A stretch of 64,000 nucleotides of DNA from Escherichia coli (GTDB lineage Bacteria > Pseudomonadota > Gammaproteobacteria > Enterobacterales > Enterobacteriaceae): assembly GCF_048403405.1 (NCBI RefSeq), contig NZ_CP183129.1. One strand, given 5' to 3'. Position numbers and translations under genes: made by a program. The notes below the pieces were generated by a model that was not told where the DNA came from, ran no database searches, and saw only the letters and a program-made list of their open reading frames with translations. Positions 46,767 through 48,490 of this stretch are shown piece after piece. Position 1 is the first letter of the stretch, and each line of letters begins with the position of its first letter.

Positions 46767-46880
46767 TATCCGCGATCGCGGATATCGCAGCGTTTATCCC
46801 GTAGAGCGGATAAGATGTGTTTCCAGATTGACTTTATCCTCACTAAAGGATAAAACTGATAATATCCCCTTGAGCGGATA
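46767..46880. promoter_or_regulatory. hipBA operator array: four HipB-binding palindromes TATCC-N8-GGATA
   Basis: Exact TATCC-N8-GGATA at 46767-46784, 46795-46812, 46835-46852 and 46863-46880, immediately upstream of hipB. Confidence 0.85.
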
Positions 46881-46901
46881 AATTTGCTGTGGACGTATGA
46901 C

Positions 46902-47168
46902 ATGATGAGCTTTCAGAAGATCTATAGCCCAACGCAATTAGCGAATGCAATGAAACTGGTTCGTCAGCAAAATGGCTGGACGCAGAGCGGGCTGGCGAAA
47001 AAAATCGGCATTAAGCAGGCGACAATTTCCAATTTCGAAAACAACCCTGACAATACCACGCTGACGACATTTTTTAAGATTTTACAGTCGCTTGAACTCT
47101 CAATGACGCTATGCGACACGAAAAATGCCTCGCCAGAATCAACAGAACAGCAAGATCTGGAGTGGTAA
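46902..47168 (+). CDS. hipB: HipB antitoxin (Xre-type HTH)
   Basis: 88 aa from MMSFQKIYSPTQLANAMKLVRQQNGWTQS...; its stop overlaps the hipA start (TAATG). Confidence 0.95.
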   Translation: MMSFQKIYSPTQLANAMKLVRQQNGWTQSGLAKKIGIKQATISNFENNPDNTTLTTFFKILQSLELSMTLCDTKNASPESTEQQDLEW

Positions 47169-48490
47169 TGCCTAAACTTGTCACTTGGATGAACAACCAG
47201 CGGGTAGGCGAGTTAACGAAGTTAGCCAATGGCGCGCACACCTTTAAGTATGCACCGGAGTGGTTAGCCAACCGTTATGCCAGACCGTTATCACTTTCGC
47301 TGCCATTGCAGAGGGGGAATATCACCTCTGATGCTGTATTTAACTTCTTCGATAACCTGCTACCCGATAGCCCGATTGTACGTGACCGGATCGTTAAACG
47401 TTATCATGCTAAATCCAGACAACCGTTTGATTTATTGTCAGAAATAGGGCGAGATAGCGTTGGTGCCGTAACGTTATTACCCGAAAATGAAACCATAACG
47501 CGCCCGATAATGGCATGGGAACAGCTCACTGAAGCCAGGCTTGAAGAAGTATTAACGGCTTATAAAGCAGATATCCCTCTGGGCATGATTAGAGAAGAAA
47601 ATGACTTTCGCATCTCGGTTGCTGGCGCGCAGGAGAAGACAGCGCTGCTCAGAATAGGCAATGACTGGTGCATTCCGAAAGGAATAACGCCGACGACGCA
47701 CATCATTAAATTACCGATTGGCGAAATCAGGCAGCCCAATGCGACGCTCGATCTCAGCCAAAGCGTTGATAATGAGTATTACTGTCTGCTGCTGGCGAAA
47801 GAACTTGGGTTGAATGTGCCGGACGCAGAAATCATTAAAGCGGGAAATGTGCGCGCGTTAGCGGTCGAACGTTTTGACAGGCGTTGGAATGCTGAGCGAA
47901 CGGTTTTACTTCGCTTGCCACAGGAGGATATGTGTCAGACATTCGGTTTACCTTCATCGGTGAAATATGAATCAGATGGAGGCCCAGGCATCGCGCGGAT
48001 CATGGCTTTTTTGATGGGGTCCAGCGAGGCGCTGAAAGATCGCTATGATTTTATGAAGTTTCAGGTGTTCCAGTGGTTGATTGGCGCAACGGATGGCCAT
48101 GCAAAAAACTTCTCCGTATTTATTCAGGCTGGCGGCAGTTATCGACTCACGCCATTTTACGACATCATTTCAGCATTTCCGGTATTGGGTGGCGCAGGAA
48201 TACACATCAGCGATCTCAAACTAGCAATGGGGCTTAACGCATCCAAAGGCAAAAAAACGGCAATCGATAAAATTTATCCGCGACATTTTCTGGCGACAGC
48301 AAAGGTGCTGAAATTTCCGGAAGTGCAGATGCATGAAATCCTGAGTGACTTTGCCAGAATGATTCCGGCAGCACTGGATAACGTGAAGACTTCATTACCG
48401 ACAGATTTTCCGGAGAACGTGGTGACGGCAGTTGAAACCAATGTGTTGAGGTTGCACGGCCGGTTAAGCCGAGAATACGGTATTAAGTAA
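47168..48490 (+). CDS. hipA: HipA serine/threonine kinase toxin
   Basis: 440 aa from MPKLVTWMNNQRVGELTKLANGAHTFKYAPEWL...; the ORF track began 19 codons upstream. Confidence 0.95.
   Translation: MPKLVTWMNNQRVGELTKLANGAHTFKYAPEWLANRYARPLSLSLPLQRGNITSDAVFNFFDNLLPDSPIVRDRIVKRYHAKSRQPFDLLSEIGRDSVGAVTLLPENETITRPIMAWEQLTEARLEEVLTAYKADIPLGMIREENDFRISVAGAQEKTALLRIGNDWCIPKGITPTTHIIKLPIGEIRQPNATLDLSQSVDNEYYCLLLAKELGLNVPDAEIIKAGNVRALAVERFDRRWNAERTVLLRLPQEDMCQTFGLPSSVKYESDGGPGIARIMAFLMGSSEALKDRYDFMKFQVFQWLIGATDGHAKNFSVFIQAGGSYRLTPFYDIISAFPVLGGAGIHISDLKLAMGLNASKGKKTAIDKIYPRHFLATAKVLKFPEVQMHEILSDFARMIPAALDNVKTSLPTDFPENVVTAVETNVLRLHGRLSREYGIK

Follow-up and report, generated by a model that had tools for sequence, protein, structure and literature searches.

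The founding persistence locus is the hipBA operon of Escherichia coli, for which the operators, gene overlap, protein structures and mechanism have all been published. A consensus for the four operators upstream of hipB is available (PMC3376134, PMC3920265), the gaps between these operators in K-12 are 10, 21 and 10 bp, and hipB and hipA have been described as overlapping by 1 bp (PMC4150777). HipB binds cooperatively and bends the DNA, with HipA serving as a co-repressor (PMC3920265). Lon degrades HipB only once the antitoxin is free of both HipA and DNA, residues 73–88 of HipB were shown by Hansen et al. to be the Lon degradation tag, and an IHF site upstream of hip has been mentioned as something that might add a further level of control (PMC3376134). 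The target of HipA is GltX, and its phosphorylation brings translation to a halt and sets off the stringent response (PMC8262856). The K-12 hipBA promoter was listed by Shimada et al. in 2014 as TTGACT-16-TAAAAC (PMC3946193).

A 64,000-nucleotide stretch of E. coli DNA (assembly GCF_048403405.1, contig NZ_CP183129.1; hereafter the window) was analysed, in which a sequence-only reading had recognized hipBA. We put the probability at about 97% that this locus is the canonical chromosomal E. coli hipBA type II toxin-antitoxin operon, present as an intact, wild-type natural allele. The operon is hence one that is already known, with a few small natural differences from that of K-12. Its identification as K-12-type hipBA was borne out when the comparison with K-12 was run, as the equivalog assignment of HipB, the domains of HipA and synteny all agree. 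The region of 1,811 bp that contains the operon (46690–48500) has matches in 5,414 of 5,426 complete E. coli genomes. In these, the genes carry the annotations hipB and hipA, and the match is 100% in strain TUM14771. A textbook autoregulated toxin-antitoxin layout had also been proposed, and this is supported by the operator consensus and 1-bp overlap, both of which match the published descriptions (PMC3376134, PMC3920265, PMC4150777). The span given for it, 46767–47170, takes in the operator block, hipB and the start codon of hipA but not the whole operon, the features of which are collected in Table 1.

Table 1. Features of the hipBA region, in coordinates of the window; operators are numbered by position along it.
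Feature	Position	Strand	Basis or detail
12-bp-stem hairpin just past the autotransporter stop codon	46698..46728	+	RNA fold, -18.9 kcal/mol
HipB operator site 1, farthest from hipB	46767..46784	.	TATCCGCGATCGCGGATA; exact pattern match
HipB operator site 2	46795..46812	.	TATCCCGTAGAGCGGATA; exact pattern match, 10 bp past site 1
Candidate -35 hexamer TTGACT	46828..46833	+	K-12 hipBA promoter listing (PMC3946193)
HipB operator site 3	46835..46852	.	TATCCTCACTAAAGGATA; exact pattern match, 22 bp past site 2
Candidate -10 hexamer TAAAAC, partly within the right half-site of site 3	46851..46856	+	PMC3946193
HipB operator site 4, nearest hipB	46863..46880	.	TATCCCCTTGAGCGGATA; exact pattern match
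hipB, Xre-type helix-turn-helix antitoxin/repressor, 88 aa	46902..47168	+	ORF table, NF007271, HTH_3
Coupling junction	47159..47170	+	GGAG Shine-Dalgarno at 47159–47162 in the hipB 3' end, hipA ATG 5 nt on
hipA, Ser/Thr kinase toxin, 440 aa	47168..48490	+	ORF table, Couple_hipA, HipA_C

The genomic setting is that of the K-12 locus. The gene order lsrR-lsrK-autotransporter-hipB-hipA is common to TUM14771 and K-12 MG1655, and positions 38001–48595 of the window are colinear with K-12 (b1508/b1507) at 96.9% identity. The upstream neighbour, annotated as an 'ECSE_1600 family autotransporter' in matching genomes, is uninterrupted (ORF 41271–46691, 1,806 aa), so the earlier description of an intact autotransporter holds; in K-12 the corresponding gene, yneO, is a pseudogene. 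The DNA past hipA had been called an accessory island. It is indeed variable and missing from K-12, in that positions 48596–56245 and 56709–59989 are absent there, but the difference is equally well described as two deletions in K-12. At least 80% of the interval 48400–64000 is found in only 456 of the 5,426 genomes. A LysR gene neighbouring hipBA is disrupted in the window.

A pattern search of the entire window found four exact matches to TATCC-N8-GGATA upstream of hipB, separated by 10, 22 and 10 bp. In 100 dinucleotide-preserving shuffles, the pattern occurred on average 0.07 times per window, and none of the 100 reached five matches. The fifth match in the window, at 59998–60015, was considered as a distant HipB site; it is a single site within a fimbrial usher ORF and is best treated as chance. 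The sequence-only reading had described the four sites as perfect palindromes, and this needs to be qualified. All four match the pattern exactly, but only site 1 is a perfect palindrome over its full 18 bp, while sites 2, 3 and 4 are perfect only within their 5-bp half-sites. To place these sites within the species, 12 promoter alleles were aligned, comprising those of the window and K-12 and ten further E. coli alleles that span the range of identity. Site 1 is identical in all 12. The half-sites of site 2 are invariant and a single base of its spacer varies (G or C at 46804), and the half-sites of site 4 are likewise invariant, with one base of the spacer changed relative to K-12 (TTAAGC to TTGAGC). 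Over the whole operator block, none of the 40 half-site columns is variable, compared with 12 of the 74 other columns (one-sided Fisher p=0.004).

The candidate promoter hexamers TTGACT and TAAAAC are fixed in all 12 alleles. Site 3 occupies the spacer between them and abuts the candidate −35 hexamer, and site 4 starts 7 bp beyond the candidate −10 hexamer, over the region where transcription is expected to start, an arrangement that would be expected if repression works by occlusion. A simple sigma-70 scan returned no promoter. The rule used in that scan demands a −10 hexamer with T as its sixth base, which TAAAAC does not have, and the empty result is therefore no argument against a promoter. 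The hairpin beyond the autotransporter gene is kept in K-12 and in the other alleles that retain that gene, and is probably a terminator that would insulate hipBA from upstream read-through. It was not listed by the terminator scan because no run of T follows it. An Rfam scan of 44000–52000 (E ≤ 1) gave no match to a known RNA element, either within the operon or near it.

The operators were also sought in other genera by scanning species-representative genomes for pairs of operators with a 10-bp gap between them, which gave 101 stretches with 102 operator clusters. A HipB homologue with 34–97% identity lies 0–200 bp downstream of 67 of these clusters, a HipA homologue is present within 900 bp of 65, and two additional clusters accompany very divergent HipB-like ORFs. 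The paired layout ahead of hipB-hipA homologues is present in at least 67 genomes from other genera. The gaps between operators follow a 10/10/10 pattern in Aliivibrio, Vibrio, Photobacterium, Succinatimonas and a Serratia and a 10/12/10 pattern in Enterobacter soli. Patterns of 10/38/10 and 9/10/9 were also seen, and in this sample 10/21–22/10 was found only in Escherichia and Pseudocitrobacter. From these comparisons, the half-sites and their 10-bp pairing are conserved throughout this HipB lineage, with the central gap free to vary. Such conservation across genera supports, on independent evolutionary grounds, a function of the four sites as operators, and the freedom of the central gap suggests that a one-base departure from K-12 is probably of little consequence. 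No common neighbour gene was found for the orphan paired operators, that is, for clusters away from hipBA. In other genera, such paired operators away from hipBA may be trans targets of HipB.

The open reading frame of hipB begins with ATGATG and ends with TAA at 47166–47168. Its product scores 182.4 bits against the NCBIfam HipB equivalog (NF007271, cut-off 79) and 50.9 bits against Pfam HTH_3 (cut-off 23), and it matches HipB entries in the PDB at 8e-54. Residues Q28, K38, Q39, S43, E46 and W88, which are invariant in 68 homologues, are all present; the first five of these are the DNA-reading residues. HipB differs from the K-12 protein by three substitutions, of which A73T and N85D lie within the disordered tail formed by residues 73–88. 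The third, E30G, arises from an A-to-G change at 46990 that converts GAG to GGG, and the class of genomes with one mismatch differs exactly there. Position 30 sits in the first helix of the helix-turn-helix domain. Only 10 of the 5,426 E. coli genomes contain an exact match to the 61-mer that surrounds codon 30, so that the sublineage represented by the window carries a rare form of HipB. Among the 68 homologues that share the operators, position 30 is occupied by E, D, A, K, Q, T, N or H and never by G. G30 is hence a derived change that is rare, at a position that tolerates substitution.

The alternative that survives best is that hipBA in the window is regulated differently from the K-12 operon, with a shift in basal expression or repression strength that would alter persister frequency. 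We consider it unlikely. It draws on the spacer between TTGACT and TAAAAC, which is 17 bp here and 16 bp in K-12, on the rotation by one base of the operator pairs relative to each other that comes with a central gap of 22 rather than 21 bp, where one extra T follows TTGAC, and on the rarity of HipB G30. It also draws on a 13-bp block upstream of site 1 that is present in K-12 and missing here; within the K-12 block lies CATCAACGCCTTA, which departs from the IHF consensus at one position, and a possible role for IHF has been suggested (PMC3376134). However, the 22-bp gap and the absence of the 13-bp block are found in 8 and 9 of the 12 alleles, respectively, and the hexamer at 46858–46863 is GATAAT in 10 of the 12 with the window counted, TATAAT being confined to K-12-like alleles. 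In K-12, this consensus-looking TATAAT abuts site 4. Moreover, other genera with the same half-sites have central gaps of 10 to 38 bp, which argues for tolerant spacing, and HipB position 30 varies among homologues that use the same operators. As the 22-bp gap, GATAAT and the absence of the block are each found in most of the sampled alleles, they are normal variation within the species, with K-12 in the less typical state. Indeed, all of these differences from K-12 except E30G are common natural variants. A more specific proposal, that the 17-bp spacer, the lack of the IHF-like site and G30 together reset the level of auto-repression, and hence persister frequency, relative to K-12-type alleles, is a little more doubtful still. 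If it were true, the rare sublineage would be a natural regulatory variant.

The hipA product matches solved structures of E. coli HipA in the PDB over its full length (about 1e-294, with a full-length match at 2e-294; 4e-293 for HipA of entry 5K98) and contains the Pfam domains Couple_hipA (96 bits) and HipA_C (176.5 bits), both past the cut-off. In NCBIfam, HipA was matched by an N-terminal domain model only, and no equivalog was returned. The kinase motif and autophosphorylation residues, S150, K181, D309, H311, N314 and D332, are the same as in K-12 and do not vary among 41 full-length homologues drawn from other genera. Ten substitutions distinguish the protein from that of K-12 (S35N, I104L, D107N, V110I, H112R, K119Q, T343A, R382K, S424T and S439I). 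One of them affects R382, which we take to be one of two residues of HipA that touch operator DNA; a literature search for K379 and R382 as contacts to the DNA backbone found nothing, and the homologues have G, N, D, K or R at position 382. These ten differences, together with the fact that the closest relatives of this allele are human clinical and faecal isolates, could be taken to indicate a high-persistence (hipA7-like) or other gain-of-function hipA allele of the kind found in clinical isolates, a reading that we regard as very improbable. The high-persistence mutations, reportedly described by Schumacher et al. in 2015, are G22S plus D291A, or P86L, or D88N. All four of these positions (G22, P86, D88 and D291) are wild type in the window, and therefore the allele is not of the hipA7 type; in addition, each of the ten substitutions falls at a position that is variable among the 41 homologues. 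The chance that the module is decayed or inactive, with a toxin or antitoxin pseudogene as in some lineages, is slighter again, for although partial hipBA regions occur in O157:H7 genomes (53–65% coverage), other strains have an IS903B insertion or a truncated HipA, and the neighbouring LysR gene is disrupted, both ORFs are of full length here (88 and 440 aa), the start, stop and overlap are the same as in K-12 and every invariant residue is kept.

The overlap between the stop codon of hipB and the start codon of hipA, noted in the earlier reading, is confirmed as TAATG at 47166–47170, in which a single base (A) is shared. The 26 bp that span it (47155–47180) are identical in K-12. By inference, the overlap and the GGAG located within hipB imply translational coupling of the two genes.

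Taking the locus as canonical hipBA, we propose that it operates as described in the published K-12 work, the steps of which are carried over here by homology. HipB dimers would bind cooperatively to the four TATCC-N8-GGATA operators, which form two pairs with 10-bp gaps, of which the hipB-proximal pair is predicted to cover the promoter. Because of that placement, HipB, with HipA as co-repressor, would switch off transcription of its own operon. A single mRNA is expected to encode both proteins, and this, together with the TAATG overlap and the GGAG inside hipB, would mean that toxin synthesis is coupled to, and follows, that of the antitoxin. Lon would degrade free HipB by way of its disordered C-terminal tail and so release the HipA kinase, which would then phosphorylate glutamyl-tRNA synthetase, leading to stalled translation and the stringent response. 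A fraction of the cells would presumably become dormant and antibiotic-tolerant as a result.

Since the system has been so thoroughly described, the locus itself carries little meaning beyond annotation. What the analysis adds is that the K-12 promoter, with its 21-bp gap, TATAAT and IHF-like site, does not represent the typical state in E. coli, and that the half-sites and 10-bp pairing are kept in many hipBA loci of Gammaproteobacteria, in contrast to the variable central gap.

Of the described systems, hipBA of K-12 MG1655 is among the closest to the operon in the window. The two have a DNA identity of about 96% and share the gene order, the TAATG overlap, protein lengths of 88 and 440 aa, the four operators with 10-bp gaps within each pair, the TTGACT and TAAAAC hexamers, lsrK and a yneO-type autotransporter as neighbours, and every catalytic and DNA-reading residue. 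They differ in the central gap (21 bp in K-12 versus 22 bp here), in TATAAT versus GATAAT and in the IHF-like block, which is present in K-12 and absent here. HipB of PDB entry 5K98 (5k98_B) is closer to the window than is K-12 HipB in the tail, having T73 and D85 as here, and all 88 residues are the same except position 30, where it has Glu rather than Gly. Further afield, the hipBA loci of Vibrio, Aliivibrio, Photobacterium, Serratia, Pantoea, Halomonas, Enterobacter and Pseudocitrobacter have the same TATCC and GGATA half-sites, 8-bp spacer and 10-bp gap within pairs, with the sites immediately ahead of hipB-hipA and the C-terminal Trp present in HipB, whereas the number of operators (2 to 4) and the central gap vary. 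The HipB-HipA module of Shewanella oneidensis is likewise of type II and has four palindromic operators, but these have the form GTGTA-N6-TACAC and an even spacing of 34 bp, one of them lies within hipB, and the hipB and hipA genes are 3 bp apart without overlap (PMC4150777).

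Two blocks of the window on the 3′ side of hipA are lacking from K-12 MG1655, and the full version of this K-12-absent region was found in only 456 of 5,426 complete E. coli genomes. The first carries a LysR-family regulator gene among others and the second carries fimbrial genes. The yneL gene of K-12 aligns to window positions 56246–56708, between the blocks, and not to the LysR-family gene adjoining hipA.

Features flanking hipBA in the window
Feature	Position	Strand	Detail
Region compared with K-12 for the 13-bp block	46746–46766		upstream of the first operator
Hydrophobic ORF (probably not a gene)	48494–48640		48 aa; start 4 nt past the hipA stop
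First K-12-absent block	48596–56245		LysR regulator, glutamine amidotransferase-like gene, aldo/keto reductases, oxidoreductases, carboxymuconolactone decarboxylase-family gene
LysR-family regulator gene, N-terminal remnant	49005–49436	minus	143-aa ORF
Second K-12-absent block	56709–59989		fimA-like gene, chaperone, usher N-terminal half
Fimbrial usher ORF	58565–61216		883 aa
Fifth exact TATCC-N8-GGATA	59998–60015		TATCCAGGTCGCAGGATA; within the usher ORF

Since homology to K-12 ends inside the small hydrophobic ORF that follows hipA, at 48595, this ORF is probably not a gene. The LysR-family gene has lost ∼350 bp internally compared with all of the 100%-identical relatives (TUM14771, 4621, TUM1226, MS 69-1 and GN02461), with a 4-bp overlap at the deletion junction (49054–49057), and its ORF is left with the N-terminal 143 residues versus 299 in TUM14771. 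The truncated gene appears to be a strain-specific pseudogene. The fifth operator-like palindrome is a lone site in coding sequence and is probably a chance occurrence. In K-12, a deletion gave rise to the truncated ydeT; the palindrome is located 8 bp inside that deletion's right-hand breakpoint (59989/59990).

Some E. coli lineages have lost part of the hipBA locus itself or carry it in disrupted form (hits H9, H22, H23, H75 and H76 to the hipBA query). Genomes of O157:H7 retain 53–65% of the query and are missing hipB, an IS903B insertion is present in one ETEC strain, and HipA is cut down to an N-terminal fragment in one strain.

Beyond E. coli, ∼33 paired HipB-type operators (two sites separated by a 10-bp gap) have no adjoining HipB homologue, including those at loci L017, L023, L034, L039, L044, L049, L051, L057, L058, L060, L063, L072, L075, L080, L084, L100 and L107, among others. 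At least seven of the genomes with such orphan pairs also contain a true hipBA locus elsewhere. The accB gene lies 130 bp downstream of the operators in three loci (L049, L100 and L107), and several other pairs are situated among phage-like small ORFs, including HNH and SprT-like genes. These orphan operators could be targets of HipB in trans, or could serve other Xre repressors of the same specificity. One hipBA locus, in a 'Candidatus Nanosynbacter' MAG (L038, contig JARKOR010000214.1), encodes proteins 97–98% identical to those of E. coli and has K-12-type operator gaps (10/21/10); its presence almost certainly reflects contamination of this metagenome bin by E. coli.

Upstream of the operators, the IHF-like site of K-12 (CATCAACGCCTTA) is part of a 13-bp block that the window lacks, as do 9 of the 12 promoter alleles sampled from E. 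coli. This would confine the IHF input that has been suggested for hipBA in published work to K-12-like lineages.
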